From Schmidtea nova (lineage: Eukaryota), in the NCBI GenBank assembly GCA_044892505.1, contig CM097882.1, positions 213,121,341-213,158,000 of the forward strand: a stretch of 36,660 bases of DNA, given 5' to 3'. Positions 1,702 through 36,660 of this stretch are shown in pieces. The translations under genes were made by a program, and so were the position numbers. Positions within the stretch are counted from its first letter, which is position 1, and every line of letters starts with the position of its first letter. The notes under the pieces were generated by a model that searched no databases, had not been told where the DNA came from, and saw nothing but the letters and a program-made list of their open reading frames with translations.

Positions 1702-2269
1702 CTAATTATTATAAATATTATGATTGGTTCGCCCAGCGGTTTCCTTTCGGCGCGTTTCCGATAATTCTTTATTTTCAGCTTGTTGTAACATCGCTACCAT
1801 CTTTACGAGAATCATAATATTTGATGTTTCAGGCGGATAATGGATTTCATTCCACGTTTCAAACGTATCTAGAAACTCCTTAGAAACACTTTCGTTTGAT
1901 GAACATAAAAATTTATGATGTATTGAAAAGGCTTTTTCAAGGTAATATTTACTGCAATATTTAGCACCACACTTTTCACAGTTACAAAACGATGATTTTA
2001 ATGAGGAAATTACACAAAATTGTTTGTAAGGAGCAACTAACGAACTATCTCCCGTTAACCGTTTTAAATTCTCATCAAAACCCTCAAGAGGTTTCATACA
2101 TTCTTCGCATGCACTGTAGTTATATTTTTCTGTTCCAGGAATACTGAATTTGAACAAGTGGTTCCTCTTCAAATAAAACTGAATCCTTTTGAATATCAGT
2201 TTCAGCTAAAAGCCCTCGTCCGATTAACGATCCAAAGAATTGCCAAGATATCACTCTCCCCGATCTCAT
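1702..2269 (-). pseudogene. SMYD5: SMYD5-like SET/MYND methyltransferase, N-terminal part only
   Basis: ATG at 2269 gives MRSGRVISWQFFGSLIGRGLLAETDIQKDSVLFEEEPLVQIQYSWNRK. After one extra A in an A5 run (~2124-2128) it continues YNYSACEECMKPLE..ENLKRLTG..CEKCGAKYCS..WNEIHYPPETSNIMILVKMVAMLQQAENKE. This matches the SMYD5 hallmarks EENAQRLTG and [21 protein letters not shown]. Homology stops at ~1770 and the C-terminal SET half is absent. Confidence 0.85.
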
Positions 2270-10756: not shown

Positions 10757-12452
10757 GAATCAATTAGTTATTTATTTTTAGTCGGTTTCCTGTCTTACTC
10801 CTCGTGCTCCTATAATTACAAATCACCAAAACCCAACACAATAATTTTGATTAAATTTCACAATTTACAAACGTTAAATCAATACAATTTCAAATTTCTC
10901 TAAAACACTACACTCTTCTTTATTCCAGCGATAGGGATAAGTTCATCAAGGGTAGATTTCCCTTTCTGATACGCTTTTGATTGCTAATATTAGATTTCTG
11001 ATAATCGCACCTTTTTCACTTACCCAAATTGTCGTACTTACGAATAATTTTTACTTCGACGAAACTGGCGATTTACTATCAGTTTGATATTCCTTTTTTA
11101 GTAATTTTATTGCGTCAATATATCAATCAAATTTCTAGAATAGGGATATAATATGATTGTTGAGGTTCGTCTAAAATGGTTCAAAATGAGACGAAAGTGC
11201 GCGGAGATAGGGGACAAATCAATAAAAAGGCTGAAAAATTTAAAACTCACAATTTATAAATAAGTACAAAAAAATAATTAAAAATTTAAGAAAAATTAAG
11301 AAAAATTAAAAATTGACATATTGTGATTGAAATTGGTATGTGCGGACGGCAAATGGAGAGACGAGTACGAGTACGAATATGATAATAAAATATCAATGTG
11401 GGGTTCCTAGAAAAAGATATTCAATAAATAAAAATTAATGAATAATTTATTAGTTATGTAGAAAACCCGAGCACATGGGAAACCTGAATGAATGGGAAAT
11501 CCAAACAAAAAGGAAACCCGTCATAAAATCTAATTATCGGAGTCACAGTCCGAAATAATTGAGTTATAAAAGACAACAATCATCTCAATTCTGCGAAAAT
11601 CCAATTATAAAAAAAGGATAATCATATTACATACCTATTTTAGAAATTTAATTGAAATATTGACGCAATAAAATTACTATAAAAATATCAGAACGGCGGT
11701 AAATCGCAAGTTTGGTCGAAGTAAAAATTTATTAAGGAGTAAGACACATTTGTTAAGTGAGGAGAGTGCGATTATCAAAAATCAAATATTAGCAAATCAA
11801 AAGCGTATCAGAAAGGGCGATCTATCTTAGTTAGATTTAACCATATTGTTGGAATAAAGAAGAGTGTAGAGTGTTTTAGAGAAATTTGAAATTGTATTGA
11901 TTTACCGTTTGTATATTGTGGAATTCAATAAAATTCATTGTGTTGGGTTTTAGTGATTTGTAATTATAGGAGCACGAGGACTCAGACAAGAAACCGACTT
12001 AAAATAAATAATCCAAAATAATTATGTTTTTTCATAATTGGATTTTCGCTGAATTAAGATGATTTTTGTCTCTTATAATTCAATTATTTCGGCCATCGAC
12101 TCCGATAGTTTGATTTTATGTCAGGTTTCACTTTTGTTCGGGTTTTCCATGAGCTGACTCGGGTTTCTACATAACTAATAAATTATTCATTAATTTTTAT
12201 TTATTGAGTATCTTTTTCTAGGGACCCCACGTTGTTATTTTATTATCATATTCGTACTCGTCTCTTTATTTTCCGTCCGTACATACCAATTTCCCAATGA
12301 TATATCAATTTTTAATTTTTGTTAATTTTTTAATTAATGTTGTTACTTGTTTATCAATTGTAAATTTTACATTTTCAGCCTTTTTATTGATTTAAATTCC
12401 AATCTCGGCGCACTTTTATATCATTTTGAAAAATTTTAGACGAACCTCGTCA
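10757..12452 (-). mobile_element. Solo-LTR-like repeat, outer copy (minus strand), split by an inserted copy of the same family
   Basis: 10757-11157 plus 12023-12452 join to give the reverse complement of 11158-12017. The 5' terminus is TGACGAGGTTCGTCT (rc of 12438-12452). Confidence 0.75.
11158..12017 (+). mobile_element. Solo-LTR-like repeat, inner copy (~860 bp)
   Basis: Starts TGTTGAGGTTCGTCT and has AATAAA followed by TGTGTTGGG. Candidate 5-bp target duplication ATGAT (11153-11157) / ATAAT (12018-12022). The 3' CA is not preserved. Confidence 0.75.
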
Positions 12453-12604
12453 GTGTGTTTTGTCAAGTTCCAAAGTTTGTAGAACCCAAATCAATAGATA
12501 TTATTGCGCATCTTATAATTAATTGTTCAATTTCTTTATTCAACTATACGCATTTGGTTTAATGAAAAGTACTTTTTCTGCATTTTAATGTTATTTTTTT
12601 CCAG

Positions 12605-14185
12605 CAAAATAGTATCAACGGCCAAGAGGATGTCCAAGCAGTGAGAGTAGTTAGCGATGCGGAAGAACGGAGCTATTCAGATTGGATTAATCAAGCCCTC
12701 AAGAACGAAGAGATCTGTCAGAAATACCTCCCAATAAATTATGAGAAACTTTACGAAGCATGTTCTGATGGAGTTCTGATGTGTAAAATGATCAATTACT
12801 CAGTTCCTGACACGATCGATGTCAGAGCGATTAATGTTGGGAAAAAACTGGAAAGCATATTTTGTAAAAATGAAAATTTATCATTAGCTGTTCAATCAGC
12901 ATCATCAATTGGATGTTGTGTTGTAAACATCGGGCCAATTGATTTGGGAAAAGGGGTTAAACACATTGTACTTGGCCTTTTGTGGCAAGTAATCCGAATA
13001 GGGCTAATAGGTAAAATCAACTTAGCCAATCACGCAGAATTAGTGGCTTTGTTACGCGACGGAGAAAGTCTTGACGATTTAAAGCATTTAAGTCCCGAAG
13101 AAATCCTAATAAGATGGGTGAATTATCATATGGAAAAAGCAAATGTTTCTCGAAGAATTTCAAACTTCAATATAGACATAATAGATTCCGAAATTTATGC
13201 ATATCTTATAAATCAAATAGCACCTAATGAATGTCGATCAAAAATGATGTCGCCCAAAGAAATCTTAAGATCGAATGATAATGTCCAAAGAGCTGAGAAT
13301 GTTCTTTGCAATGCAAGTGCCATGAACGCAAAGGCCTTTGTTGAAGCAATCGATATTGCAATGGTCACACAAAAAGGTAAAAATCGTGAAAAATTAAACA
13401 TGGCGTTTGTGGCACACTTGTTCAATAACTATCCTGCCTTGCATATCACAGAACAGGTAATTCAAGAATTCGACATAGTCGAAGAGACTTTGGAAGAGAA
13501 AACTTACCGAAATTGGATGAATTCAATGGGCGTTGAGCCTTATCTGAATTACCTATACTCTGATCTGCGAAACGGGATAGCATTACTGCATCTGATAGAC
13601 GTAATCCAGCCAAAGACCGTTAATTGGGATACGGTGATAGTCAAGTTTAATCCACTGAAAAAACTGTTTCAAATGCAAGACAATTGTCTAGCATTTATTA
13701 GCTATGCAAAAAAATTGAATATAAAACTAGTCGGTTTAGCTGCCGAAAATATTCGAGAAAGTGAAACGACTTTAGTTTTAGGATTGTGTTTTCAATTGCT
13801 AAGAAAATACACATTTCAACTGCTCCAGAAACTGCAGCCAGACAAATTCAATAAATCCATTGAAGACCGAGACATCATTGAGTGGGCAAATAAAAAATGT
13901 CAATCTCTTGGCAAGCCAGAGTCTGTCATTCGATCTTTCAAAGATCAAAATATAAAATCCTCAAAACCAATTCTACATTTGATAGATTCAATAAAGCCAA
14001 ACTCGGTTGATTATTCAATGATAACAAATAACCCATTGGATGATGCAAAATACGCCATAACTGTGGCAAGGAAAATCGGAGCCAACGTTTACGCGTTACC
14101 GCAACATGTTGTTGATTTGAATCATAAAATGATTCTAACAATTTATGCCTGTCTGATGTTAGTTGACTTGCAAAAGCGTTCTTAA
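12605..14185 (+). CDS. fim: Fimbrin/plastin (two actin-binding domains, four CH domains); visible exon lacks EF-hands and a start codon
   Basis: EERSYSDWIN..DGVLMCKMINYSVPDTIDVRAIN..ENLSLAVQSASSIGCCVVNIG..HIVLGLLWQVIRIGL, LSPEEILIRWVNYH, EEKTYRNWMNSMGV, TLVLGLCFQLLRKYT, DAKYAITVARKIGANVYALP. The frame is open from 12566. Splice acceptor TTATTTTTTTCCAG ends at 12604. AATAAA at 14247-14252. Confidence 0.95.
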   Translation, partial: QNSINGQEDVQAVRVVSDAEERSYSDWINQALKNEEICQKYLPINYEKLYEACSDGVLMCKMINYSVPDTIDVRAINVGKKLESIFCKNENLSLAVQSASSIGCCVVNIGPIDLGKGVKHIVLGLLWQVIRIGLIGKINLANHAELVALLRDGESLDDLKHLSPEEILIRWVNYHMEKANVSRRISNFNIDIIDSEIYAYLINQIAPNECRSKMMSPKEILRSNDNVQRAENVLCNASAMNAKAFVEAIDIAMVTQKGKNREKLNMAFVAHLFNNYPALHITEQVIQEFDIVEETLEEKTYRNWMNSMGVEPYLNYLYSDLRNGIALLHLIDVIQPKTVNWDTVIVKFNPLKKLFQMQDNCLAFISYAKKLNIKLVGLAAENIRESETTLVLGLCFQLLRKYTFQLLQKLQPDKFNKSIEDRDIIEWANKKCQSLGKPESVIRSFKDQNIKSSKPILHLIDSIKPNSVDYSMITNNPLDDAKYAITVARKIGANVYALPQHVVDLNHKMILTIYACLMLVDLQKRS

Positions 14186-15877: not shown

Positions 15878-15888
15878 CTCCCCTTCTT
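15878..15888 (-). other. Polypurine tract AAGAAGGGGAG
   Basis: Abuts the 3' LTR and overlaps the integrase stop codon (15887-15889). Confidence 0.9.
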
Positions 15889-17125
15889 AAGAACTTTTCC
15901 ACTTCTTCAGCCACTCGATTCTTCTTTCTTTCGTTCCTTCTTGCGAATGTAGTTCGACTCGATGAGGTGATAGAAATCTGATGATTTTATATGGGCCATC
16001 GTACTGCATACCATCCTTGTGTCTGTTCTGCGGTTCTTTGCGTACGAGTACCTCCTCCCCCACCTCAAAAACACGAGTTCCTCTCTTTGTCTTATCCATA
16101 GCTCTCATTGTGTCTGCGGCTTTACTCGAGTTATATCTTGCGTCTTCTATCCATTCGCTTCTTGATATCTCTGCTTGTTTCAGGTTTGAATGTAGGTTAA
16201 CACTCCGTCCATAAATTATCTCAAATGGTGATAAGCCTGTAGCACTCTGTCGACTGCTATTTATACTGAACTCTATTCTAGGTAGAAGTTCATGCCAGTT
16301 TCTCTCTTCACACCCACCTGCCAATGTCGCTGTAATAAGATCTCTTACTGTTCGTATGGCTCGTTCGGCTAATCCATTTGATTGGTGCTGGTAAGGTGAG
16401 CTGAATTCCTGTTTGATTCCAAGTTTCTGTAGTCTCTGTCTTAGAAAATTCCCTTCGAAATTGCGTCCTCTATCTGTTAAAATGCTCTTTGGTTTTCCAA
16501 ATCGATAGATCCAACTGTTAAGTATAGTTTTGAAAATTGTCCCTTCGTCTTGCTTCGTGATTGCGGTCAAAGAAATCAATTTACTAAAACGGTCCACAAT
16601 TACTAACATATATTTTTTAATGGTGTTTTTTTCCATGTAGGCCACATCCATTACAATCTGTTCTAGGAATTCAGAACTACATCTAGGGATAAATATTTCC
16701 TTGGTTCTTGTCTGGTCGATCTTTCTCTTAGAGCAGATATCGCAACATTGTAAACAGAGCTGAATTGTTTCTTGCATCTTCGGCCAGTAAAATATCTTTT
16801 CCATATAATGGAATAATTTCTTAACTCCAATATGACATAATTCTTCATGTAGAGTTGTTGTTAATAAGCCTGCAAAGGTTTCTGGAACTAACATTAAAAT
16901 ATTTTCGTTCTTTTCGACTGTTATTAATCCTCCATCAATTCTTGTATTTTTTACGTTAAATGGGAAACAATTCTTTTTGTCCCGTGCGCATCCATTTTCT
17001 AATATCTCTCGTAACTCTCGAAACCTAATGTCCTTCTGCTGTTGCTCCAATACTTTTTCCATAGCTTCTGTTCTTTGGATAGTATATATATCGGATTTTT
17101 GACTTTCCTTCCTTGGCATCTTCAT
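15887..17125 (-). CDS. Gypsy integrase portion of pol, out of frame with RT/RNase H
   Basis: HHCC zinc finger (LHEELCHIG..CCDIC), DVAY..IVDRFSK, TDRGRNF, SNGLAER catalytic core, GPY module (YDGPYKI). Confidence 0.95.
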   Translation of the reverse strand: MKMPRKESQKSDIYTIQRTEAMEKVLEQQQKDIRFRELREILENGCARDKKNCFPFNVKNTRIDGGLITVEKNENILMLVPETFAGLLTTTLHEELCHIGVKKLFHYMEKIFYWPKMQETIQLCLQCCDICSKRKIDQTRTKEIFIPRCSSEFLEQIVMDVAYMEKNTIKKYMLVIVDRFSKLISLTAITKQDEGTIFKTILNSWIYRFGKPKSILTDRGRNFEGNFLRQRLQKLGIKQEFSSPYQHQSNGLAERAIRTVRDLITATLAGGCEERNWHELLPRIEFSINSSRQSATGLSPFEIIYGRSVNLHSNLKQAEISRSEWIEDARYNSSKAADTMRAMDKTKRGTRVFEVGEEVLVRKEPQNRHKDGMQYDGPYKIIRFLSPHRVELHSQEGTKERRIEWLKKWKSS

Positions 17126-19046
17126 GTCGCGTTTGACACTGGGAACAAATCATACTTTTTAATCTTGATAGTCCATCTGCATTCGAATGTTGTTCACCTT
17201 TCCGATATTTTAGTTCAAAATCATATTCAGACAAGTTTGCTAACCATGTTTGAAACTGCGGACTGATTGGTGTTTTTGTAGTGTTCATGAAAACCAATGC
17301 TTTGTGGTCGGTGCGAATTATGAATTTCTTTCCGTAAAGATATTCTCTAAAATGTATGACGTACTCATGTACAGCGAGCAGTTCTTTCCTGGTTACACAG
17401 TAACCCTTTTCATGTGATGTCATATGTCTCGAACCATATGCTATAACAGATTCTTCTCCATCTTCTTTAATTTGGCTCAAAACTGCACCAATTGCTCCAA
17501 AGCTAGCGTCTGTGTCTAAGATAAATGTCCTATCTTCTCTTGGATAATCAAGGATAGGTGCCTCGCACAACCGTTCCTTTAGTGTTTGGAAACTCTCATT
17601 GCATTCTTTAGTCCAAATTATATCTTTATCGCATCCAGATGTTGCGGCATATAGTGGTTCTGCGATTCTGGCGTAGTCTTTAATAAATCTTCGATAATAG
17701 TTCGTTAATCCGAGAAACGATCTTAATTGCTTTGAACATTTTGGTATTTCTGCTTTCTCGATCTCTTCAACTTTCTTTCTGTTTGTCTGGATACCCTTCT
17801 CGTTAACTGTATGCCCAAGGAAACACAATTCTGTTTTATTGAATTCACATTTTTCTGGATTTATCTTCAATCCTGCCATTTGAATTCTTCTAAATATTTC
17901 CCCTAGTAGCTCATCGTGGTCTTTTTGACTTTTCCCATAAATCAAAATATCATCTAAATAAACAACTACCCCTTTGAATAGCATTCCTTCTAGTACTTTG
18001 TGCATCAGTCTCTGGAATGTCGCAGGAGCTGTTGCTAGGCCAAACGGTAGTCTGTTAAAGCAAAATTGTCCTTCTCTTGTACTGAATGCAGTCATTTCTT
18101 GAATTTCTGGGGCCAACTCTACTTGATAGTACGCCTGACCTAAATCAATTGACGAAAATATTTTTGCATTCGCTAGACAGTCTAATAAGAATTTGGTATT
18201 AGGCATCGGAAATGATTCCTTTTCTGTTATGGCATTCAATCCACGATAGTCTACACACATCCTGATGGATCCATCTTTCTTCCCTACTATAACTAACGGG
18301 GCATTCCAAGGACTCTTGCAACACCGAATAACATTTGCTTTTATTAATTCTTTTATCAGTTCTTCAATCTTTTTCTCCATGTGCATTGGTTGACGTCGAG
18401 GATGTTGCATTATTGGGCCTCCTGTTATCCGCATCTCATGTCGAACTAAATTTGTAAATCCCAAATCAAATTTCGACGCCATAAATATTCCGCCGTATTT
18501 CCTGATCATTCCTTCAATGTCTTTATTATTTTCACTTGCCATCGCCATTAGTGCTTTATTTATTCTTTCTTCATCAGTGTGGATTTTGTTTATGTCTGAA
18601 GTTTCTATATTATTGATCTTCACTAACTTTACTCCAAACTCTTTCATTGTATCAATACCCCCTATGAATTCTGGCTTGATCTCTTTTACAACCACTACTG
18701 TGATAATTTTGGTCTTCTGATTCCATGTGGCTGATATATTCATATATCCCATTGCCTCTTCCCCTCCAGTTGAAAATACGCCGCATAATAATATAGTACT
18801 ACGTTGAAGGTCTGGTTTGCCTATTCTCTCCCACAGATTCTTGCTCATAACTGTTACTGACGCTCCAGAGTCCCATAACATATCTACTTCTGTATTATTC
18901 AACATTATTTTACTCCAACTTCTTCCATCCTTCGTCTGATACATCTCTTCTTCTGCCTCGTCTCTTCTTCGTTCATTTCTTCTTTCATAATTTATTGCCT
19001 TGACTCCACCGACGAAATGAAACCCATGGAGTCGCTGATGTTTTTT
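17025..19046 (-). CDS. pol: Gypsy pol: aspartic protease, reverse transcriptase, RNase H; expressed by -1 frameshift from gag
   Basis: LWDSGASVTV, SPWNAPLVIV, LPFGLATAPATFQR, YLDDILIYG, LDTDASFGAIGAVLSQ, RTDHKAL. The frame is open upstream of Met 18944 to ~19075, overlapping the gag 3' end in the -1 frame. Confidence 0.96.
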   Translation of the reverse strand, partial: KKHQRLHGFHFVGGVKAINYERRNERRRDEAEEEMYQTKDGRSWSKIMLNNTEVDMLWDSGASVTVMSKNLWERIGKPDLQRSTILLCGVFSTGGEEAMGYMNISATWNQKTKIITVVVVKEIKPEFIGGIDTMKEFGVKLVKINNIETSDINKIHTDEERINKALMAMASENNKDIEGMIRKYGGIFMASKFDLGFTNLVRHEMRITGGPIMQHPRRQPMHMEKKIEELIKELIKANVIRCCKSPWNAPLVIVGKKDGSIRMCVDYRGLNAITEKESFPMPNTKFLLDCLANAKIFSSIDLGQAYYQVELAPEIQEMTAFSTREGQFCFNRLPFGLATAPATFQRLMHKVLEGMLFKGVVVYLDDILIYGKSQKDHDELLGEIFRRIQMAGLKINPEKCEFNKTELCFLGHTVNEKGIQTNRKKVEEIEKAEIPKCSKQLRSFLGLTNYYRRFIKDYARIAEPLYAATSGCDKDIIWTKECNESFQTLKERLCEAPILDYPREDRTFILDTDASFGAIGAVLSQIKEDGEESVIAYGSRHMTSHEKGYCVTRKELLAVHEYVIHFREYLYGKKFIIRTDHKALVFMNTTKTPISPQFQTWLANLSEYDFELKYRKGEQHSNADGLSRLKSMICSQCQTRHEDAKEGKSKIRYIYYPKNRSYGKSIGATAEGH
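18972..19046 (-). promoter_or_regulatory. -1 ribosomal frameshift signal (slippery heptamer plus stem-loop/pseudoknot)
   Basis: A AAA AAC in the gag frame (19046-19040), 6-nt spacer, stem GACUCCA/UGGAGUC, and loop UUCAUUUC complementary to downstream GAAAUGAA. Confidence 0.8.
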
Positions 19047-20305
19047 CCGTCTTCTCTCAATGTAGTATATTTTTCAGGAACATTGTATCTATCTTCCATA
19101 TCGCTGTGAGCCATTCTGAAATCTTGGCTGTTTTCGGTGTAATCTCTTCTTTCAGATTTGGAATCTTCTTCTTCTATGCACGCTATTCTTTGATATCGAC
19201 GGGGCACCTCTTTCCGTAACGAAAAACAATCTCGGAATCCGTGTCCCTCTTTACCACATATCAGGCATTTATTTCCCAGTGGGCACTCATATCTTTTGTG
19301 TCCCCTTTCGCCACAGCAAAAACAATCACCTACTGTTAATTTTGGAGCCGGTGCTTGTGGTAGTCCTCTACTTTCGTTATAGATCCTTCTTGCTATATTC
19401 TTCATGGAAATTGTTGGCAGTTTCCTTTCTGAGCCATCTTGGATTCTAACATTTCTCAAAAATTGTTCTTTTGGGAATTGTTCTCGTCGACCGCGGTTAT
19501 TTTCTTCGAATTGTATCGGATGTTCATCTCTTCTTGGTCTGTGATGACTAAATGGGTCTTCTGATTGTCTTCTTTGTGATGGTGTAGGTCTGGTATCTTG
19601 AGTATTCTGTTGAATTCTCATTTGCCCTCTATCAATCACGCTGGCATATGTTCTTTTACCAATTGATTTAATAAATTCAGTTTTATTGCTTCCCTTTTGG
19701 TTACTCTCAAAAATCTTCGCCAATGATCTCGTTTCTTCAATTTTTGTTTCTGGTTTTGTCAATAATATTTCCCTCAATCTCGCATCACGTGCTTTATTTG
19801 CGATGAGATCTTGAACAATATCTTCTTCTGATCGTCCTGAATTTATAACTTCAGCTAAAGCTTTCCTTAATCGAATCTCGAAAGCTGCAAAACGTTCATC
19901 ATCTTCCTGTTCCAGAACTGCCAATTCTCTGATTTTGTCAGTTATTGACTTCGTAATTGTGAAAGTATTTAGGAACCAAGTTTTGGCTTTCACATCTGTT
20001 GTTTCTGTTTCTCTGACGTTTCCCCACAATGTCTTAGCTTCTGCCACTAATAACACATCGAAGGTGCTTGTCAATCGCTGTCCATTTGTCAACAGCCATT
20101 CTTCTATGTCTCTGATCCATTCTTCTGCTTCTTTCGATCCTCGTCCATCATATCGTCTGATATTCAGCGTGAGCATATCTTGGCATGATTTTGGTAGGCA
20201 TTCCATTAACGTCTTTGTTGATTTCGAAACTGCATTGACATTCTGATTTTCGGCGTGGTCGCCAGTTAAATCAAACTCGGTTTTAAAAGACTGAACTTCC
20301 TTCAT
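18992..20305 (-). CDS. gag: Gypsy gag (437 aa) with two CCHC zinc knuckles
   Basis: CFCCGERGHKRYEC and CLICGKEGHGFRDC; position upstream of pol. Confidence 0.93.
   Translation of the reverse strand: MKEVQSFKTEFDLTGDHAENQNVNAVSKSTKTLMECLPKSCQDMLTLNIRRYDGRGSKEAEEWIRDIEEWLLTNGQRLTSTFDVLLVAEAKTLWGNVRETETTDVKAKTWFLNTFTITKSITDKIRELAVLEQEDDERFAAFEIRLRKALAEVINSGRSEEDIVQDLIANKARDARLREILLTKPETKIEETRSLAKIFESNQKGSNKTEFIKSIGKRTYASVIDRGQMRIQQNTQDTRPTPSQRRQSEDPFSHHRPRRDEHPIQFEENNRGRREQFPKEQFLRNVRIQDGSERKLPTISMKNIARRIYNESRGLPQAPAPKLTVGDCFCCGERGHKRYECPLGNKCLICGKEGHGFRDCFSLRKEVPRRYQRIACIEEEDSKSERRDYTENSQDFRMAHSDMEDRYNVPEKYTTLREDGKNISDSMGFISSVESRQ
20254..20264 (-). other. Primer-binding site TGGCGACCACG (tRNA-Arg type)
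   Basis: Directly follows the 5' LTR, sharing its last base. Complementary to the ..CGUGGUCGCCA 3' end I recall for animal tRNA-Arg(UCG); needs confirmation against host tRNAs. Confidence 0.75.
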
Positions 20306-20385
20306 AGATTTATTTAATTAAAATTTTATAAAAAGTGCCAAAATACCCAATTATTAAAACACCAGTTAATTTTAAATATCCAACT
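20264..20385 (-). repeat. 5' LTR (122 bp) containing the gag start codon
   Basis: Identical to 15756-15877. Minus strand has TATAAA (20330-20325), AATAAA (20314-20309) and ATG (20305). Confidence 0.97.
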
Positions 20386-25174: not shown

Positions 25175-27186
25175 AGTAAATTACTAGCACCATTAACCCT
25201 TTCTAAGGTGGTGGCAATATACTGTACACCATTTTAAACTAATAAAAATATTTAAGTGTAACGCTGTCGGTAATCATTTTTACTTTTAGTACAACTACTG
25301 ACATATATTGAGCCAAAAGAGAACAAATTTATAGTATTTTTATGTTTTTATTTTTTTATGATCATTTGTAACTATATAATTATTATTAATAAACTTTGAG
25401 TTTTACATCACTTTTAGTTTCCTTTGCCTTAGAAAGGGTTAAATGACATTATCACAAAACAACCGAAGCATTCGAGAAGCCAAAGAAAGTCTTTCAACGG
25501 CAACACTACTCGGATACCCAGACCCAGAAATAGAATACCAATTAACTACAGACTGCTCAGGTTTCGCAATGGGTGCAACAATTTTCCAGGAAAACAAATT
25601 CGGAAAACAACCACTAGGTTTCTTCTCTAAAATGCTAGTCACACCAAACAAGATATTCGACTTTCGACAGAGAACTCCTAGCAATACATGATTCAATCAA
25701 ACACTTCCAACATTTACTCGAAGGGCGAACTTTCAAAATATTCACCGACCACAAACCGCTAACAAACGCAAAAGAAATGAAAAATCCTTCGTCAAGGCAG
25801 ATCAGACAAATCAACTTCATTTCACAATTCAATTGTACAATAAACTATGTAGCGGGAAAATCAAACATAGCAGCAGACGCCTTATCCAGAACCGAAAGTG
25901 ACATAAATTCCTTAGAATTCGGAGAAATAATTTATTTGGATCAAATCAAACCCAAACAAAACGAAACAATAAGGAAACTGCCTACTAAACACAGCCTGAA
26001 ACTCCAGGAACTTAACGGAGTATGGTACGATGTATCCAACGAAAGCAACAGACAAATTCTACTACCCGAAGAATTCCGCCAAAAATGCATCGAAAAGATC
26101 CACTCAATTAATCATCCGGGAAACAAAACAACTTTCGAATTAATACATAACAACTATATATGGCCTGACATGAGGAAAGAGGTAAAAAAGTTTGTCAAGA
26201 GCTGCCATAATTGCCAAATAAGCAAACCAACAAAGAAAATCAAAACCGAAAAAGTAAACTTTCCAAGTAGTCAACCCTTCGAGGTGATCCACATTGACAT
26301 AGTAGGACCGTTACCACCAAACAACGGGTACAACTACCTACTAACAATCATCGACAGAAAGACAAACTGGTTCGAAATCGTTCCATTAAAAGAAATATCC
26401 GCACAAAATATATGTAACAACTTCGAACTAAATTGGATAGCTCGTTACGGACAACCCAAAATACTAATAAGAGATCAAGGGAGGCAATTTGAATCAGAAA
26501 TATTCAGCGCTCTATGTAAAAAATACGAAATAAAACGGAATCGAACAACCGCTTACAATCCACAAGCGAATGGAAAAGTCGAAAGACTGCATAGAACGCT
26601 TAAACAAAGCATCCGAACCAAATCGAATGACAGAAATTGGTTGTCTGAACTACCGACAATCTTACTGGGACTAAGGAACATACCAAATTCAATAGACAAT
26701 GAAAGTCCAGCATACAAAGTGTTTGGCAGAGAATCAAACCTCTCAACAATTAAAAACAAAACAACAGAAAACGCAAAAACCAACAAACAAGCAACCAACA
26801 CAAACAACGAAAGAGTAGAAAAGAAATTAAAAGGAATCCTAAAAAGGAGAGCGAACTCTGAAATGGACGGAAAAGTAGTTCTAACGACAGACTACATATT
26901 AATCAAAAAGCCCTTCACCAAAGGTTTCGAACCAAAATACGAAGGCCCATTCAAATTGCTAGAAATCAATAAAAATGTTGCAACAATAATAAAAGACAAC
27001 ATCAAAATAAGAATCAATCTAAGATGGATAAAACCGTATCATAACAATCAAAACATCTCAAACAATCCCACAAAAGAAAAAGCACCGACACAAACAAAAA
27101 CACAACCAAACCACAAACACATCTCATTCAACTCCAAAAACTCAGTAAAACTGTTCGACAAGGACACAATAATCACACCCTTTTAA
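25175..27186 (+). pseudogene. pol: Second Gypsy pol, 5'-truncated: RT C-terminus, RNase H, integrase
   Basis: SKLLAPL|NDIITK across the MITE, then AKESLSTATLLGYPDP, LTTDCSGFAMGA, a frameshift, YSTFDRELLAI..FTDHKPL, HHCC (IHSINHPG..CHNC), IHIDIVGPL, RDQGRQFES, ANGKVERLHRTLK, YEGPF. Confidence 0.93.
25197..25438. mobile_element. piggyBac-type MITE (242 bp)
   Basis: TTAA-CCCTTTCTAAGG..CCTTAGAAAGGG-TTAA (12-bp TIR, TTAA TSD). Removing it restores CCA TTA AAT in the pol frame. Confidence 0.92.
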
Positions 27187-28028: not shown

Positions 28029-28513
28029 ATTCTATTGGTAGTTTTGTGATCCGACAGTTTACAAAGTAATTACATTGTGATTGTTGTGTTAGAGTTAAAT
28101 AATTTAAATAATAAAATTTTTATTATAACGTATCATTTTGTTTAGTGTTTACGCATAACATAGCATACACCCCGAGTGTCTGCACACAATTACCGCAAGA
28201 AAAAATTTCTTTACACACAAGATACTGCGTCGTATTTACNNNNNNNNNNNNNNNNNNNNNNNNNNNNNNNNNNNNNNNNNNNNNNNNNNNNNNNNNNNNN
28301 NNNNNNNNNNNNNNNNNNNNNNNNNNNNNNNNNNNNNNNNNNNNNNNNNNNNNNNNNNNNNNNNNNNNNNNNNNNNNNNNNNNNNNNNNNNNNNNNNNNN
28401 NNNNNNNNNNNNNNNNNNNNNNNNNNNTAATGGTTTTGGAACCCTTGAAGATTTTAACCCACCATAAACCTTCGAAGGTATGACCATCATACTTACCTCT
28501 CAATTATCTTTCG

Positions 28514-28517
<4 letters not shown>

Positions 28518-28573
<56 letters not shown>
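28518..28573. repeat. (AT)n microsatellite
   Basis: About 28 uninterrupted AT units. Confidence 0.99.
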
Positions 28574-28576
<3 letters not shown>

Positions 28577-28879
28577 AATGTTAAGAATACTTTGAAGGTT
28601 TTTAACCTTTTGAAGGTTCAGGACCCTCCATAAACCTTCGAGGTATGACCTTTGAATAGACATCTCAAAGACCTTTTGAATCATATCTTTGTTTGAAGGT
28701 TTAACCTTATTTGACCTTGGGAAATTCAAATTTTAAATTTGAATTTTAAATAAATTTTTTTACCCCGGGTGGGGGAGGGGGAAGGGGTATTTGTTTGAAT
28801 TTTTCCGTCCACGCATGTCTTTGTGTTTGACTCCACACATCTAACTACTCTCATGTTTTTTCTAACGAGGTTTTTGACA

Positions 28880-29960
28880 CTATTCTGATGTGATCAGGTT
28901 TTTATTGTAACTATGCATAGGCATAATTTAATTCTCTACAAAATGGCTTTATTCAGAATTTAAACTGTTGGGTGTTGTGTTGTGCACACGTGCTTTGAAA
29001 TTAATTTTGATATTTAATTTATTTAAATTATTTTATTGTATTTTCATTGTAACATCGAATGCATTAAATTTAAATGTCTACAAAATGGCTTGATTGGAAA
29101 GGTAGTGTGTTGATGTGTTTTTAATACACACTTATTTTGCACTTTAATTTGCATTTTTCACATATATAAATTAATTTTAATGAGTTTTAATTGCAATAAT
29201 GTATAGATTAAAATTTAATTTTCTACAAAATAGCTTGATTAGAGAATTGAAAGTTATCGTATTTTGGGATGCACACGTGTTTTGTTATTAATCTTTGCAT
29301 TTTTAAACTATAAAAAGTAATTTTAGTGAGTTTTCATTATAGTATGTATAAAATTTAATTTCCTATACAATGGATTGATTAAAGATTTTAAAAGTTTCCG
29401 TTTTCATGTTACACACATGTTTTGTAATTAATTTCGCCTTTTTCATCTATATAAAATTACTTTGTTAAGTTTTCATTGTAATATTGTAGATATAAAATTT
29501 ATTACAAAATGACTTGATTCAAAATTATGTATATCGATATGTTTGTAATGCACACGTGTTTTGTAATCAAATTTGTATGCGTTTGGCAAACGTTGGCAAC
29601 GTTGCGTCCAGCATGGTGGAAACTATTTTGAGTTCCTCGATGATATGGATGATTAATTTGCTTCATAAAATTATTTGTCTTTGTTAAATATATATATTCA
29701 TTGATCAATGTGACTGCAGAAACTTGAATGGCATTAATTTTTCTAACTGCAGAAACTTTCCGGTCAAACCTATATTTAATCTATTTAAAATAATTGTATT
29801 GAGCTTTTATAGTAATAAAGTAAAGTTTAAATTTAAATTCCTTTAAATGGCTTGATTCAAATTTTAAAAGTTGCGCTTTTTCATGTCTTACGCGTTTTAT
29901 TTTAAAATATTTTTCGGCTATTTAGCATAAATTTATTGAATATTTATTGTAATCATGTAT
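28880..29960 (+). repeat. Degenerate ~141-bp tandem array (five consecutive units plus one)
   Basis: Anchor CTACAAAATGGCTTGATT-like at 28936, 29078, 29223, 29363, 29502 and 29841; recurring GCACACGTG. Confidence 0.8.
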
Positions 29961-30320
29961 AGATCGAATTTAATTTTCTATCGTACTCAATATATAAAGG
30001 TTTTGTGTGTGTTATTGACAATTCTAATGTATTTAATCATTAGTATTTACAATAACTTATAACTGACGTAATTACTGTAATATAATTTAGATGTAATTCA
30101 TTCAAATATTTGATCTAATTTATTGTAATAATATTCCGTGTATGGGATTTATTGAAATATTTTATAACTTTGATGTAAATTATAATTTGGTGAAATAATA
30201 TGATGTTAACTAAATAATAGCGTCAAATCGTCTTTTAAAAAATTATTTAATATTTTAAAATGCTGCAACATAATATATGTTTATTCATAATTCTCTATCC
30301 ATTTCTTGAATTTGATCTGC

Positions 30321-30470
30321 TGATAATAATAAATTTCCTACGACTTACTCAATTTTGATTGGTTGATAAGAATAAATTTCCTACCCCTTACTCGATTTTG
30401 ATTGGTCAAAAGTTATGTGTTTATAATAACTTTGAAATATATAAATAATAATCTTTCATTCATTATTCAC
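30321..30470 (+). promoter_or_regulatory. Pol II promoter candidate: duplicated 43-bp unit with inverted CCAAT boxes, TATA box, Inr-like TCATT
   Basis: 30321-30363 and 30364-30406 are near-identical and each ends in ATTGGT. TATATAAA at 30438-30445, TCATTCATT at ~30456, ATG at 30495. Confidence 0.55.
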
Positions 30471-30494
30471 TTTAAAAAATACAAAAAACTTTAA

Positions 30495-31513
30495 ATGAAC
30501 ACTACAGCAACTAGTTTTATGATCGAAAAACCAAGTGACAAAGAAAATAGTAAATTTATTTTTAAAATTATTATCATTTAGTATTTATTTAGGTAATATC
30601 AATAATTTAAGTGGGAATTCGAGTTTAGAAAAGGTGGAAGAAAATGGTACTTAATCTTTAACTTAGTATATTATTTAATTTTTACTTTAGGTGATGTAAA
30701 TATGAATGATCAAACTCAAGTTCAAATAAAGATTGTTAGCGACGAAAATATTATGATTGATGGAATCATACCTTATGCATCGATGCATATTCAATGTAAA
30801 TATTGATTAATTTTAATTAATTTCATTAACTTTTGAAAATTAATTTAATTAAATTATTAAATATTTTTAAGTAAAATTTCTGGAAAATTTCTGTAAATAT
30901 TTTGTAATTATTTAAATAATTTTTATTTTGCGTAGAGAATTAATTTGAACAAATTTCTTTAATATTATTTTTTAATAAGTTTTATAGTAGATTTAAATTA
31001 TTTTATGTAATTATTATATTTAACTAATATTTATTTTATATTTTATATTTATTTTCAAATAACTCATATTTTTGTTAATTTATTTTAAAAGAAATTTGGA
31101 TATATTTAAAAATATTTCATAACTAAGGTAATTTTTATGCGAATTATTGTAAGTCGTCAAATCATAACGACTGCCACAAATTAATAGAAGGATACTATCG
31201 TCTTATAAATAACCAAGTCATCTTCTTTTTATGCCCCATTTGTAAAAGCGCCCAAAATATAACATATATTGATTTTTATTTCCAACAATATCTCCATTTA
31301 AATCAATTCTCATGCACTAAGAAAAGTCTTTTCGCATTAATTAATAAAAGTAAACGACGAAATGTTACTGTTTGTCCTAATCCAGCAAAAATAATTGTAA
31401 TATCCAATGATGAAGATGTTCATTCATTAAATGACGATGTTTTAGTTATTTCTAATTTATCTGTTGTTCAATATGGGGGTTCTGTTGAACCCTTGGGTAA
31501 ATATATAATTTGA
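30495..31513 (+). CDS. Predicted four-exon ORF (30495-30549, 30593-30646, 30691-30795, 31128-31513), probably the 5' part of the Polinton PolB gene
   Basis: Three GT..AG phase-1 introns (43, 44 and 332 nt) keep one frame open: MNTTATSFMIEKPSDKENS-NINNLSGNSSLEKVEENG-DVNMNDQ..HIQC-NFYANYC..FLCPICK..QYGGSVEPLGKYII. The last exon is ~128 stop-free codons missed by the ORF track because it has no early start codon. The third acceptor (AAG) is weak. Confidence 0.55.
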
Positions 31514-33757
31514 AAAATTCATATGCAATTGTAAAAATGGATGTGAATTCTTTAAATCTAAATAAATTAATTATCCCTTTGCCTTTATTAAATAAATTTA
31601 ATTCAGTTATTTCCGAAATGGGGTATGTAAAAGTATAATTCTGCATTAAAGTAGAATTTGGAAAAGATGGACAATTCCAATCTTTTATAATATCGAATTC
31701 CGCAAAGCCCATTTAGATGTATTGCCCTATTAAGTGAAAGAAGTACTAAAGTCTGCTAAAAGGGCAGCAAATGGCCAATTAATAAAATTAAAGAAATAAG
31801 CTTTAAACTTTCAAAATATTCACAAATAAGTAGATTGAGCGGTAAAGGTTCTTGTTCAACCCCACCATCATAAAATGCAAAACATTGAACTGTTAATGTA
31901 AAAATACCGATAATTTGTGTTTTATATATAGTATTTTGGCTATTTTAAAATACGATGAGATAAATAACAATCACAGAAACAGAGCATCTAATTATAATCC
32001 CTCAGACATTGTTTTTGATCCTTCTGATTTTCCGATGAAATTATGTAGTATTCCCAAATTTTAATCGAAAAACCCCGGGCTGTCAATAAATGTCCTTTCT
32101 TATGATGAAAGCAATTTAATCAATTGCTTTGAAAAGAATGAAATATTGAAACATCCATTTGTAGATATTATTCATAGGTCAAATGCTGTAGGTGGAACTC
32201 CTATTAATTTGATATTGTTAGAAAATTACTCTTTTCATTATATAGGATTTACCTGTAAATAACTCTTGTAGTTTCTGTATTTTATATGTTTTCGTTTTTT
32301 CTTGTTTTAATGTATAAAATAAAATGTCGTGATAACTAATCACAAATATTAAATAGATAAATCAATTATAATACTTCATATTTAATACTTCATTATATTC
32401 ATACTGAAATCATATTTTAATACATCATGCCGACGTTTAAATTACCAATCTTAAAAGGCTTTTGAATTGTGAAACTCTTTCTTTTACTAACTAACTTTAC
32501 TAGTAAAAAATCATATAAAAGCTTTTATGGTCTTAACTGTGTAGAAGAGGTTTTGACTGAAATCAAAAATATAGGAAAAAAAGTAGTTTTACCTTACTTT
32601 ATAAATAATTCCAAAAAGAAAATGGAATATCTTACCCCTGCACAAATAAGATCGTCTCTTAGTTCTACAATTTGTTATTTGTGTAATAAATCTTTGAAGA
32701 ATCCGGTTAAAGATCATGGCCATTATACAGGTAAATATTTGGGTGCTGCTTGCTCTAAATGCAATTTTTCTCGGAAAATTAGATTCATCATGCCTGTAAT
32801 TTTTCATAATTTACGTGGACATGATCTACCGTATATTCTCAAATATGGTTTAAATAAATTTCCAAGTTGGAATATAAGTTGTATTTCTACTACTAGTGAA
32901 ATGCTTTTGACTTTATATGCAAGACTCGATAGTTTAACTATTAAATTTATCGATTCTTGCCAATTTGTAAGCTCCAGCTTAAACGATGCTGTAAAGACTT
33001 TACCAGATTTTCCTCTTACTTCATTCGAATTTAAAGGGACTATAATTACTTCCAAGGCAATATTCCCATATAATTTTGCAACTTCTTTAGAGGTTTTACA
33101 AAATATATACGAGTTGCCACCGATTTGGGAGGGAGTTACAACCAACGAGAATAAAAAAGCTCAACATATATGAGATGAATTTGATTGTGACACATTGTTT
33201 GATTATATGATGTTATACCTGAAATTGGATGTTTTCTTACTTGCCGACTTTTTTCAGCAATTTAGGGCAAAATCCATTGTACATAACTGACTTGAGCCTC
33301 TTAATTTCTTGGGAATTCCAGGCATGTCATGAAATTTCGCATTGATGACTTTGAAATCTCCTATCGAATTGCTCCAAGATATGGAAATGTATAATTTTTT
33401 CGAAGGGGGGATCCGTGGGGGGTTAACTTATGTTAATAAACACCATATAGTATCCTCCGATGACATTGAGCTTCTTAATATAGATATAAATAATTTATAT
33501 GGGTTAGCCAAAAACTGCCTTATAAAGAATTCAAAAGGGTAAGTGATAGGTGAAAATTAAATAAAATAATTTATTACTGTGAATCTGCTGATTTAAAAGT
33601 ATTAACTTATGGGTTTACATTAGAAGTCGATTTAGAAATTCCTGATTCGATTCAAGACAAGCTGGATGATCTTCCAATTGCCGCTGAAAAGATGTGTCCA
33701 CCTGGCTCAAAGGTAGAGAAGTTGATGCGAACGCATTATCCGAAGAAGAACTATGTT
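31501..33757 (+). pseudogene. polB: Polinton protein-primed DNA polymerase B, N-terminal part (N-domain, endonuclease VII, exonuclease, motif A), multiply disrupted
   Basis: GSKW, NTDNLCFIYSILA, FPMKLCSIPKF..SINV, HYIGFT|NLKRLL, CYLCN..DHGHYTGKYLGAACSKCN, HNLRGHD, FIDSCQFVSSSL, KAIFPY, YLKLDVFLLADFF, GIRGG..DINNLYG, LEVDLEIP, ending at KKNYV. Motifs B and C are not in this segment. Confidence 0.92.
32254..32441 (+). mobile_element. 188-bp solo-LTR-like insertion within polB
   Basis: Flanked by a 5-bp direct repeat TTACC (32249-32253 and 32442-32446). Starts TGTAAA and ends TTTAAA, one change from TTTACA. Removal restores HYIGFTNLKRLL. Confidence 0.75.
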
Positions 33758-34316
33758 TCAAAGACAAGAGTACAACAAATCCTAAAATAATTAAACTTTA
33801 TCAACACATGTTCATCTATAGCAACATTGTTGAACCGATTATTGTTGGTGATTCTCGTGTTTCTCTGTTAACCCCTTTCTGCATGAGTGTTCATATATGA
33901 ACATAATTAATTAAGACTCGAAAATATTCTTTTTTCATAAAAATATTATTTTGTTTCTGGTAACATTCTTAAGTTGCAACCCTGTTTATTCTAATTTAGT
34001 ACCAAAAACTGTCAAGTGGCGCTAATGACCCTACTTTTCTAAATGTAACGGTTACTATTCGGCCATTTTTTAAATATATTTTTTAAATATAAACAAAAAA
34101 TTCATGCAGAAATGGGTTAAAGACGGTGTGGGATGAAAAATACGAACAAGATGAAGTAGTGCGAATTGTAATAGAAAATCCAATGTATCTATCTATGTCA
34201 ACATCATTTATAAACAATATAGAAATTATTATACCTGATGATTCTGGAAAATCTATAAATTTTTCAAAACATTCAAAACTCATTTGACTTTGCATTTCAA
34301 AAAGGTAGATATCTAA
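33758..34316 (+). pseudogene. Polinton minor capsid (penton) C-terminal part
   Basis: HMFIYSNIVEPIIVGDSRVSLL|KTVWDEKY..NPMYLSM..NIEIIIPDDSGKSINF..TLHFKK. The N-terminus is missing at the junction with polB. Confidence 0.85.
33872..34116. mobile_element. piggyBac-type MITE (245 bp) inside the penton gene
   Basis: TTAA-CCCCTTTCTGCATGA..TCATGCAGAAATGGG-TTAA (14/15 TIR match). Removal gives in-frame CTG TTA AAG ACG. Confidence 0.9.
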
Positions 34317-34700
34317 TCCTGATATTGTTTCGCTTTATAATGGTAGTCAATCAGGTGGTGAATTACCATGATTTGTTGGTAAACAATATGGTTCTGATTG
34401 GTTGCTCACAATCGGTTGATATGCACTTCCAATTCTTAAAAAGATTGGTTCTTTTGGAATGAAAGCAGCAAAGGATGTGTTAGTGTAAGATCAAAAGATT
34501 TTACCAACTTTAAAAAGACATGGAATGGACGAAATTGGAAAAATAATGCCTAGTGCAAAAAGAGATTTTTAAACCAAGTGAACCAGAAAAACCAACACCA
34601 AAACTAGTTGTTCCTCGTAGTAAACGAAAAAAGTTTCTTATAAAAAAAGATGGAAAGGTCTTGGAACAATATTTGAAAATGATTTGGGGCAAAACTGAAT
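34309..34700 (+). pseudogene. Basic core-protein-like Polinton gene (adenovirus pVII/pX-like precursor)
   Basis: SNPDIVSLYNGSQSGGELP*FVGKQYGSDW..*YALPILKKIG..PRSKRKK..KGLGTIF. Has QxGG/QxGxG-type motifs and lies between penton and major capsid. Confidence 0.6.
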
Positions 34701-35896
34701 TGTCACTTTTTGATCGTCCATCTCCTCAAGTAGTAACATGGTACATTTGAAGATGTATTTCCTATGAACTCAATTACTGATTCGCGAAATGATGTAGAAT
34801 TCTATATTAATGGATCACAAACATAGTAGTTGGACTTGAACGACACACTTTTATCCATTCAATTGAAAGTTGTGAATAAAGACAAGAAGGATTTGGCTGA
34901 TGGTGTAGATGTGGTACCGAATAACTTTATGTTTCATACACTATTTAAAGATGTCATACTTGGATTTAATAACATCAAGATTGAAGAAGAAAACAAAACA
35001 TATGCACAGAAAGCTTTGATTGAAACTATTTTAAACTATAATGGAGATACAAAGAGTGTTTCGCTTGCAGCAATGGGTTATGAAACTAAAGACTTTCGAA
35101 AACAATGAATTGCAAAATCAAGATTGTTTTCAATATGTTCATCATTGCAACTAGATTTCATGGATCAACCCAAATACTTTCTTCCTGGTCTAATTGTACA
35201 CATTTGTCTAAAGTGATCAGATTTAAAATTTTGTTTGGATACAACAGTTGCTAGATCAGCATCAAAATATCAGTTGATTGATGCAAAATTATTGGTTCGT
35301 AGTGCTAATTGAATCATCAGTGTTGGTAGGTCATTAGATTGGTCTCAATTCACAACATGCAATTTATCCCATCAAGTCAAAAGAAATTGTTGCATTTGCA
35401 ATAAGCAAAGATTCGTCATCGTTTTATAAAGAACAAATATTTGATGATAAGCGTTTACTAAACTTTATTCTGGTAACATTTCAATCGGAAGCTCAATATA
35501 ATGGTTTGAATGCAGAAATGAGTTCAAAATTTAACCATTTCAGTATAACTTCATTAACTTTATCGAAAAACTTTATTATCGTGAAACATATAAGCAAGAT
35601 TTTGACAAAGATAATTATGCTGTAACTTAAATGCAATCTATTGTACGAAATATGGGTTATTTAGACAATAATCTATATTGTGGAATAAATCTTGTAGACT
35701 TTAAAAGTAAATACCCTTCTTTACATTTGTGTTGGCTCCCGACTTTGATTGGAATCAATCGCAGTTACCTCAAAATGGAAATTTAAGACTTGATATTAAA
35801 TTCAACAAGGCTCTTACATCTCCTGCATTTGTAATAATGTATGGTGTTTTTGAGAGTGAAATTCAGATCTCTGCAAATCGAACTATTTTAGTGTAA
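34679..35896 (+). pseudogene. Polinton/adintovirus major capsid protein (hexon-like double jelly roll), with stops and frameshifts
   Basis: KTELSLFDRPSPQ, VEFYINGS..LDLNDTLL, HTLFKDV..TYAQKALIETILNY, DFMDQPKYFLPG, AIYPI, GNLRLDIKFNKAL..MYGVFESEIQISANR. Confidence 0.9.
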
Positions 35897-35927
35897 ACAA
35901 AGTTGTTGATGAATATTACTTTGAAAT

Positions 35928-36286
35928 ATGGAGTAAGTTAGTTTTGTTACTAATAATTCTACTAATGTAGTTCTATTCAGCTTAATAGAATTGCAACAAA
36001 TTTATTCGGATATAATTTTCCTTTTCTAAACGATAACAAAGCCATCATTGTCAAAACATAATCTTCAAGTCTTGATGAAGAACATTGGCTAGTCATATAT
36101 ATGACCCCTGAAAAGATTCATGTGTTTGACCCTATGGGTTATTATTATCTATCACTCTTGGTATCAAAGCTCTCCAAATTATCAAAACCTATTGTTTACA
36201 ACAAAAATAGATATCAAGATCCATTAACAGTTACTTGTGGACAATATCGTATTGTTTGGTTATATTATTTGTTTAATAAATGTTAA
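35928..36286 (+). pseudogene. Adenain-like maturation cysteine protease, two exons (35928-35932, 35971-36286), one premature stop
   Basis: ATG GA|T TCT gives MDSIQLNRIA.. across a 38-nt GTAAGT..CTAATGTAG intron. Catalytic motifs EHW, HVFDPMG, YQDPLTVTCGQY. TAA at 36059-36061. Confidence 0.88.
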
Positions 36287-36417
36287 TTATTTGGCGTATG
36301 ACTTTTATTTTCAAAAATAACTAAATTAACTCGTTTGTTTTATAACTTTTAATAAAATAACATTTAGACAACTCATCAAATAATTTTAGCAACAACAACA
36401 ACAAAGTAAAATGTTTA

Positions 36418-36660
36418 ATCAGATAGATATTGTTCTGATTCACTTGATAAATAACTTGGTGAATGCTCAGCTTGAACACCTTCCTGAAAAATTACTATAG
36501 AATAATGCCCATTAGCTAGACTCTTATTTCTCCTGACCCAACCCTCTTATCATCGTTGTTAGTTAATGCGACTTTAGTTGTTTTAAATTTAAAGAAAAAT
36601 GATGATTTTTATTGCCAATTCTAATTTGTTGGACTTTTGGAATTATCATTCCATTATAAC
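36418..36660 (-). pseudogene. polB: PolB extreme C-terminus on the opposite strand, continuing beyond the window
   Basis: With two frameshifts: QIRIGNKNHH..KTTKVALTNNDDKRV..SLANGHY, matching the Polinton PolB end pattern K.aL...DDKR...la.GHY. Confidence 0.75.

Follow-up and report, generated by a model that had tools for sequence, protein, structure and literature searches.

Polintons or Mavericks (adintoviruses) are known by AGT..ACT ends, 6-bp duplications, a protein-primed DNA polymerase (pPolB), an rve integrase with a chromodomain, an A32-like ATPase and an adenain-type protease. The elements of Schmidtea nova treated here are alike in all of these, and their complete forms measure about 17 kb, as in animal Polintons/Mavericks (PMC8097293; PMC8502044; 10.1101/2022.07.12.499685). 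Reduced piRNA silencing is reported to de-repress planarian Polintons (PMC8532177). The locus under study lies in a stretch of 36,660 nt (GenBank assembly GCA_044892505.1, contig CM097882.1, positions 213,121,341 to 213,158,000, forward strand; hereafter the window) and is a decayed Polinton pPolB gene, shortened below to PolB. Its sequence makes it very probable that the gene was served by a host-type promoter and by splicing, with a leader supplying the start codon and the first Cys of a predicted zinc unit. Intact vertebrate Mavericks are reported to lack introns (PMC8097293), and nematode Polinton core genes have been called intronless (10.1101/2022.07.12.499685); the introns described in related elements lie in cargo genes (10.1101/2022.07.12.499685), are group I introns (PMC12220804) or are introners (PMC12166617). 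Unlike these intronless core genes, the polymerase considered here appears to have two to three conserved upstream introns.

The described architecture of Polinton pPolB is TP-vOTU-EXO-PALM, that is, terminal protein (TP), vOTU, exonuclease and palm, with a terminal protein related to Y-family polymerases/little finger (PMC11071308); 'zinc', 'splic' and 'intron' are absent from the main text of that source. The S. nova polymerases resemble this scheme in a predicted terminal-protein domain, a putative OTU-like region with the Cys of a CFIYS motif, and the exonuclease and palm motifs that follow, but differ from it in the predicted spliced leader and Cys/His unit ahead of the terminal protein. 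Adenovirus E2B offers a parallel for the leader, since the start codon of its precursor terminal protein (pTP) comes from a 9-nt exon about 3 kb upstream, with predicted splice sites (PMC2397415). With the start of a replication protein in a short upstream exon there and, by prediction, here, the leader would work like E2B without being adenoviral. In adenovirus, however, the terminal protein and polymerase are separate and there is no integrase, whereas here a TP-like domain lies within the polymerase frame and an integrase occurs in related elements. In place of a 9-nt exon, moreover, the leader comprises 30–120 codons in one to three exons and contributes a predicted metal ligand.

A second comparison concerns whole elements. 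Polinton inverted repeats are described as 100–1,500 bp long (10.1101/2023.08.22.554363), whereas in S. nova whole 7-kb arms are inverted, with PolB alone or an integrase/capsid block alone. Bidnaviruses are similar in being pPolB replicons split over segments with matching ends (PMC8502044; 10.1101/2024.03.25.586562), but they are single-stranded, parvovirus-like and not integrase-driven, whereas the pieces found here are integrated, young and numerous. The likeness to multipartite viruses lies in complementary gene content and similar sizes; complete elements coexist with the pieces. No description of a spliced Polinton polymerase or of gene-carrying palindromic Polintons was found in the literature searched; Kapitonov and Jurka 2006 and Repbase, which lie outside that search, may describe flatworm elements.

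The predicted spliced leader of PolB

The polymerase locus is made up of the following features, given in window positions.

30357..30460, plus strand: predicted RNA polymerase II promoter, placed by motif positions, its activity being a prediction
30495..30549, plus strand: leader exon 1, 55 nt (52 nt in siblings)
30550..30592, plus strand: intron 1, 43 nt, phase 1, GT..AG
30593..30646, plus strand: leader exon 2, 54 nt
30647..30690, plus strand: intron 2, 44 nt, phase 1, GT..AG
30691..30795, plus strand: leader exon 3, 105 nt, its final base being base 1 of a split Cys codon
30796..31127, plus strand: intron 3, 332 nt, phase 1, GT..AG, with an acceptor position common to six PolB families
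31128..31331, plus strand: predicted two-zinc unit, from alignments, models and 79 library hits; one His is Gln in the window copy
31332..31496, plus strand: low-confidence linker (predicted local distance difference test, pLDDT, < 50 over model residues 78–110), ending in QYGG (31469–31480), a candidate protease site
31497..31835, plus strand: terminal-protein domain of PolB, the frame being broken near the domain start in the window copy
31836..33757, plus strand: remaining PolB gene, with several stops and frame breaks and an unrelated stretch near 32254–32480, cut off at 33757

From the ATG at 30495, the spliced frame runs for 199 codons to a TGA at 31511–31513. The three phase-1 GT-AG introns, four exons and 199-codon frame of the original prediction were all found in the window, as were its Cys-rich patch and QYGG motif; the intron length of 43–44 nt that it gave holds for two introns (43 and 44 nt) but not for the third (332 nt). 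The exons have a GC content of 30–31% and the introns of 9–16%, in an AT-rich host genome of 1.25 Gb. Motifs of the proposed CCAAT/TATA/Inr type are present ahead of the ATG at 30357–30456, namely reverse CCAAT at 30357 and 30400, TATATAAA at 30438 and TCATT at 30456, which we take, by the usual consensus names, to be CCAAT boxes, a TATA box and an initiator-like element.

A search of the S. nova genome with exon 4 returned at least 150 matches, many of which open frames of 1,246–1,270 codons (about 1,255), and in a sibling copy one continuous frame leads from exon 4 through QYGG into the polymerase. Six PolB families were found in the genome, five of which were compared at full length and are 57–69% identical. 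In family 1, a leader with exons of 52, 54 and 105 nt is kept at 18 of the 19 young loci, and in family 2 at 14 of 15, which makes 32 loci with the proposed exons and introns; the two arms of one palindrome enter these counts as two loci, which are therefore not independent. Aligned splice sites are intact at 31 of the 32 leader-keeping loci, the other having one damaged donor. Several of the older copies (n = 19) have lost splice sites or frame, as in dead copies. The identical order of promoter motifs stands upstream of the leaders in families 2, 4 and 5.

At the last junction, all six families have an AG 21 nt upstream of the second Cys codon, followed by GT or GC, and in all six the last leader exon ends in T ahead of a GT donor; because this exon-final T joins GT or GC, the splice would yield a Cys codon. 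Read without splicing, the sequence at the AG gives Gly, a stop codon overlaps the AG in families 1, 3 and 4, and the first Met of exon 4 lies only 19–28 residues in, after an invariant C, H and C. The Cys/His unit that this Cys would open spans about 65 residues with eight conserved Cys/His, in the pattern C-x6-C-x4-H-x2/5-C ... C-P-x-C ... H-x2-H. A profile search of 1.84 billion proteins returned 79 matches to it, and in 42 of the 44 complete units among them a Cys stands 5–8 residues before the second Cys; the other two belong to proteins that start too late to tell. The relative P0017 is unspliced and has the same C-x6-C spacing without an intron. Judged from these comparisons, the last intron is of long standing, and its position is such that its removal makes the cysteine.

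Upstream of this junction the leaders are diverse. Families 1, 2 and 5 have three coding leader exons, and family 6 has three or more. Family 3 has two, as seen at 9 of the 18 loci checked, and family 4 has a single one, as seen at 10 of 12 loci; both have an additional short intron in the untranslated part before the coding leader. By eye, the leaders of families 1/2, 3, 4, 5 and 6 bear no mutual resemblance, and the final intron varies in length from 130 to about 1,300 nt across families. Between copies, leader exon lengths vary by multiples of three (52/55, 31/37, 168/201 and 189/306 nt) and intron lengths by single bases. The ratio of nonsynonymous to synonymous substitution rates (dN/dS) is 0.22 for exon 4 and 0.34–0.41 for exons 1–2 of two family-5 subtypes. 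Families 1 and 2 are about 91% alike in promoter and leader and about 66% alike in PolB DNA (L045:4395-5445, minus strand), which suggests an exchange of the leader module with a breakpoint within intron 3.

Taken together, the six families and the unspliced relatives support the reading of a viral polymerase gene that is spliced and has an additional domain at its N-terminus, and splicing of the leader in vivo, as predicted from these patterns, is very likely in our estimation. Some observations weigh against it. The six families share ancestry and are therefore not six independent trials. A fixed GC-boundary rule placed the T|GT donor nearest or second-nearest in families 1, 2, 5 and 6; in families 3 and 4 the rule did not pick out the donor, which was read by eye. 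Leader dN/dS reaches 0.39–0.93 in families 1/2 (68 codons), 0.53 in family 4 and 0.34–0.76 in family 5, and the values for families 1/2 indicate a weakly constrained peptide; the leader is loosely constrained and likely disordered, the frame being what is kept. The internal Met of exon 4 is invariant in 10 of 10 aligned units and is a possible second start.

That Met, about 20 codons into exon 4, could instead be the only start, with the upstream GT-AG pairs untranslated or incidental. The library proteins P0003, P0025, P0026 and P0081 begin there, and a leader dN/dS near 1 in some pairs fits such a reading, but it leaves unexplained the invariant C, H and C upstream, the retention of the AG position and of the T before the donor in six families, and the shifts of exon length by multiples of three; the same Met, moreover, is internal in the unspliced relatives. 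Initiation at this Met alone is accordingly rated very unlikely.

The original prediction had also considered a host gene fused to polB, and the leader exons might be such a gene, or part of one, fused to or lying beside it. Their short host-like introns and host-like promoter would suit this origin, and an old host source is conceivable since genome searches score only the best candidates. The Cys unit, however, precedes Polinton-type PolB in proteins from other sources as well (P0002, P0003, P0008, P0025, P0079 and P0081), and the fusion is not supported. Target duplications bound the elements in which the leader lies, the 40 best-listed matches to a sibling leader are all full-length, near-identical copies, and different PolB families have different leaders; a host gene is highly improbable. 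No intron-less DNA copy of the predicted spliced leader occurred among the same 40 best matches, in a search that favours full-length copies.

Four sequencing runs of unrecorded kind gave 0 joints at the predicted splice sites among 15 of 65 joints. Three of them have lower coverage over intron 3 and cover the promoter equally; the dip is taken as AT bias of DNA runs and is used neither for nor against splicing. No short host intron for comparison was found in window 11400–12760.

Palindromic and complete elements in the genome

Many PolB copies in S. nova lie head to head. In family 2, 126 of the 150 matches listed form 63 such pairs, 3.6–7.8 kb apart (hand count), and pairs also occur in families 1 and 4 and are rare in families 5 and 6. 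Six PolB palindromes could be read to both ends; they measure 14,045–14,473 bp, have AGTAGG..CCTACT ends and 6-bp duplications, and contain two PolB genes and no other long frame. The ends of three further PolB elements (B, D and U) are unclear. A second kind of palindrome, 14,240–14,242 bp long, has the ATPase, integrase and predicted capsid genes twice, arranged inwards, a protease in the spacer and no PolB (L110:5042-L111:9283 and L113:3793-L114:8032, with 6-bp target duplications; many such pairs are listed). A third kind, of about 14,760 bp, has 3.9-kb repeats on either side of a single family-3 PolB. The integrase/capsid palindromes and the family-3 kind have the same ends as the complete elements, which measure about 17.3 kb. 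Wherever element ends were read out, AGTAGG..CCTACT and a 6-bp duplication were found (12 of 12).

Pfam matches identify rve and Chromo together with Pox_A32 in L110 and Peptidase_C5 in L097. The integrase, ATPase and protease sit in the complete elements and the integrase/capsid palindromes, outside the PolB palindromes. Frames of 420 and 362 codons have no Pfam match; from their position we label them as putative double jelly-roll major capsid and penton genes. Family-3 elements have a TBP-like frame (Pfam TBP, E 3e-16; L100:6412-6858, with an inverted copy in L099) within their 3.9-kb inverted repeats, and complete elements have it too.

The two arms of a palindrome are 99.87–100% identical, and separate copies are 86.6–99.7% identical. 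Many pairs have an identical shortened frame on both arms (e.g., 231/231, 656/656 and 845/845 codons), from which it follows that the arms were copied from each other and that dead polymerases still spread. Long-read methods can produce inverted duplicates, and the near-identity of the arms is what a fold-back artefact of library preparation or assembly would leave. Against such an artefact, each palindrome is flanked left and right by different DNA and has a 6-bp duplication without mismatch, three PolB families and the integrase/capsid type all cluster at 14.0–14.5 kb, and elements are nested within palindromes and vice versa; this explanation is therefore considered extremely improbable. 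The palindromes resemble the snap-back defective genomes of linear DNA replicons, in which one genome end is duplicated in inverted orientation.

At the centre of PolB palindromes, an inner AGTAGG..CCTACT motif pair surrounds a 300–550-bp spacer, and such terminus-like sites were located at L107:1532-1913, at L141:1841-2342 and in the window at about 28790–28850. Elements of the group are often nested in one another: a family-2 palindrome adjoins a family-1 palindrome and cuts into its end (L045:554-L046:7480), and L113/L114 and L144 provide further cases.

Predicted polymerase domains and surroundings of the window copy

Structure prediction of the front region gave a confident domain, an unfolded linker and a confident alpha/beta domain. 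The Cys/His unit is confident over residues 11–77 (pLDDT 83–97 across 11–70) and has the shape of a helix, a hairpin and then helices; the model of the P0017 unit has a mean pLDDT of 80.7. That the unit holds two zinc sites is predicted with good confidence. It has no Pfam zinc-finger match (matches to NCC-H and YfmQ fell below the cut-off and were rejected), no clear structural match among 48,161 chains, the best being Serrate at Z 2.7, and, taken alone, no BFVD match at E <= 0.001; a missing structural match is evidence of neither a new nor a different fold. The best Foldseek match of a 430-residue model in BFVD is A0A7D4VFN9 (E 4e-8, TM-score 0.21), a C2H2-domain protein of Drosophila-associated adintovirus 2, and thus an adintovirus protein with a zinc-finger annotation; since the unit alone matched nothing in BFVD, this match probably rests on the later domains. 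The N-terminal domain, proposed earlier as novel, is not private to this element, given its 79 library matches.

Relatives have between one and four units in tandem in front of Polinton-type PolB sequence, in some cases preceded by true zf-C2H2 domains. A word-index search with residues 1–300 gave one match. Nine of 18 short library proteins end just behind the unit in Gly-Lys/Asn/Thr and a hydrophobic run (P0028, P0029, P0031, P0042, P0047, P0049, P0058, P0062 and P0063). This ending resembles a frame reading into an intron and hints that other lineages may have an intron behind the unit. No relatives with flanking DNA were found among viral contigs (two proteins) or metagenome contigs (a three-protein alignment).

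Behind the unit, QxGG is present in PolB families 1, 2 and 4; the motif recurs in two further proteins encoded by the elements. The alpha/beta domain that follows (residues 120–235) is confidently modelled, and its best PDB matches, to Y-family polymerases, are of the kind expected for a PRD1-like terminal-protein domain but weak (E 0.013–0.1, probability 0.99 at E 0.013). A candidate for the catalytic Cys of a vOTU, that of CFIYS, stands at residue 270 of the sibling frame, where pLDDT is 40–80. Exonuclease and palm motifs, by their usual names, are present in the sibling frame. Window 32469–33170 has a DNA_pol_B_2 match at E 6.5e-4, below the cut-off, and an Endonuclease_7 match, and the relative P0001 matches DNA_pol_B_2 at E 1e-25 (all Pfam). 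The order leader, zinc unit, linker, QxGG, terminal protein, OTU-like region, exonuclease with an endonuclease-VII insert and palm is proposed with considerable assurance. A fourth phase-1 intron (31497–31606), put forward earlier as a link between the 199-codon frame and PolB, has G|GTAAAT and TTCAG in place in the window copy alone and has practically no chance of being real, because siblings read exon 4 into PolB in a single frame of 1,252–1,255 codons, and the donor occurs in 0 of the 31 siblings, out of 38 examined, where its site could be located. Families 1, 2 and 4 and library proteins have this stretch as conserved coding sequence, modelled as the first strands of the terminal-protein domain.

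The window joins one decayed PolB arm (28432–33757) to the remains of a complete-type element (from 33772 on). Terminal repeats or a target duplication of its own were not found for the window copy, a single truncated arm. Its surroundings include three further features.

28432..28850, no strand assigned: decayed spacer-like sequence of the kind at the centre of PolB palindromes, with 72–84% matches to the centre of the L045 family-2 palindrome
28898..29981, no strand assigned: array of ~144-bp repeats upstream of the promoter, with staggered matches in 144–145-bp steps to L043/L045/L046 and within the window
33772..36660, plus strand: remains of a different, complete-type Polinton, with predicted penton end, core protein, major capsid protein and protease, 88–95% identical to L115/L116 and L110/L111

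The capsid-region remains at 33772–36660 were considered as part of the window PolB element and rejected, as they belong to a different one. The PolB of that complete-type Polinton follows beyond the window on the minus strand, and L057 continues into L116. Elsewhere in the window, 12566–14185 is a host gene exon with four calponin-homology domains (fimbrin/plastin-like), and long terminal repeat (LTR) retrotransposon frames (gag, pol and integrase, the integrase by Pfam) lie at 15887–20317 (minus strand) and 25639–27186 (plus strand). We take the LTR frames to be Gypsy-like and a fragment at 3–635 to be from a mariner-like transposase. A Cys-rich frame at 1702–2205 (minus strand) has no Pfam match and is presumably part of a SET/MYND-domain host gene.

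A proposed mechanism and its bearing on Polinton biology

Transcription would begin at the central, host-type promoter, and splicing would join three short leader exons to the PolB exon, providing the start codon and the first Cys of the predicted zinc unit. The product would be a polyprotein in which the leader is followed by the zinc unit, the terminal protein, the OTU-like region and the polymerase. The zinc unit would help to load the polymerase on element ends, and the adenain-type protease of the element would remove it by cleavage at QxGG, as adenovirus trims its terminal-protein precursor. Loading and cleavage together are a tentative proposal, held at somewhat less than even chances. 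The palindromes would arise as fold-back products of end-primed replication and be inserted by an integrase supplied in trans, perhaps with capsids from other elements; that the ~14.2-kb palindromes are fold-back products borrowing integrase, and perhaps capsids, in this way seems reasonably likely by analogy. PolB-only and integrase/capsid-only palindromes would need each other or complete elements to move, and their narrow size range suggests packaging. A bolder formulation, in which this Polinton lineage is intron-dependent and effectively segmented, the intron that splits a zinc ligand gating the polymerase and the element spreading as two complementary 14-kb palindromes of packageable size, one for polymerase and one for integrase and capsid, is speculative and appears doubtful. 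Two points count against these proposals: family 5 has no QxG motif in the one broken copy scanned, and the palindromes need not depend on each other, because complete elements exist.

Annotation treats the core genes of Polintons as free of introns and starts their polymerases at the first Met of a long frame; here, such a start would cut through what is modelled as a conserved metal-binding unit. If the splice is real, the element needs the host spliceosome for its replication gene, like adenovirus with E2B. This dependence would bear on the origin of adenoviruses from Polintons and offer the host cell a step at which to control the element. Because the unit is common to dozens of unnamed proteins, and nine of the 18 short ones have intron-like endings, spliced Polinton polymerases may be widespread and have been missed. 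The palindromes, for their part, provide many young, dated insertions for testing particle-borne movement of animal Polintons, and packaging would impose just such a narrow spread of sizes around 14 kb.

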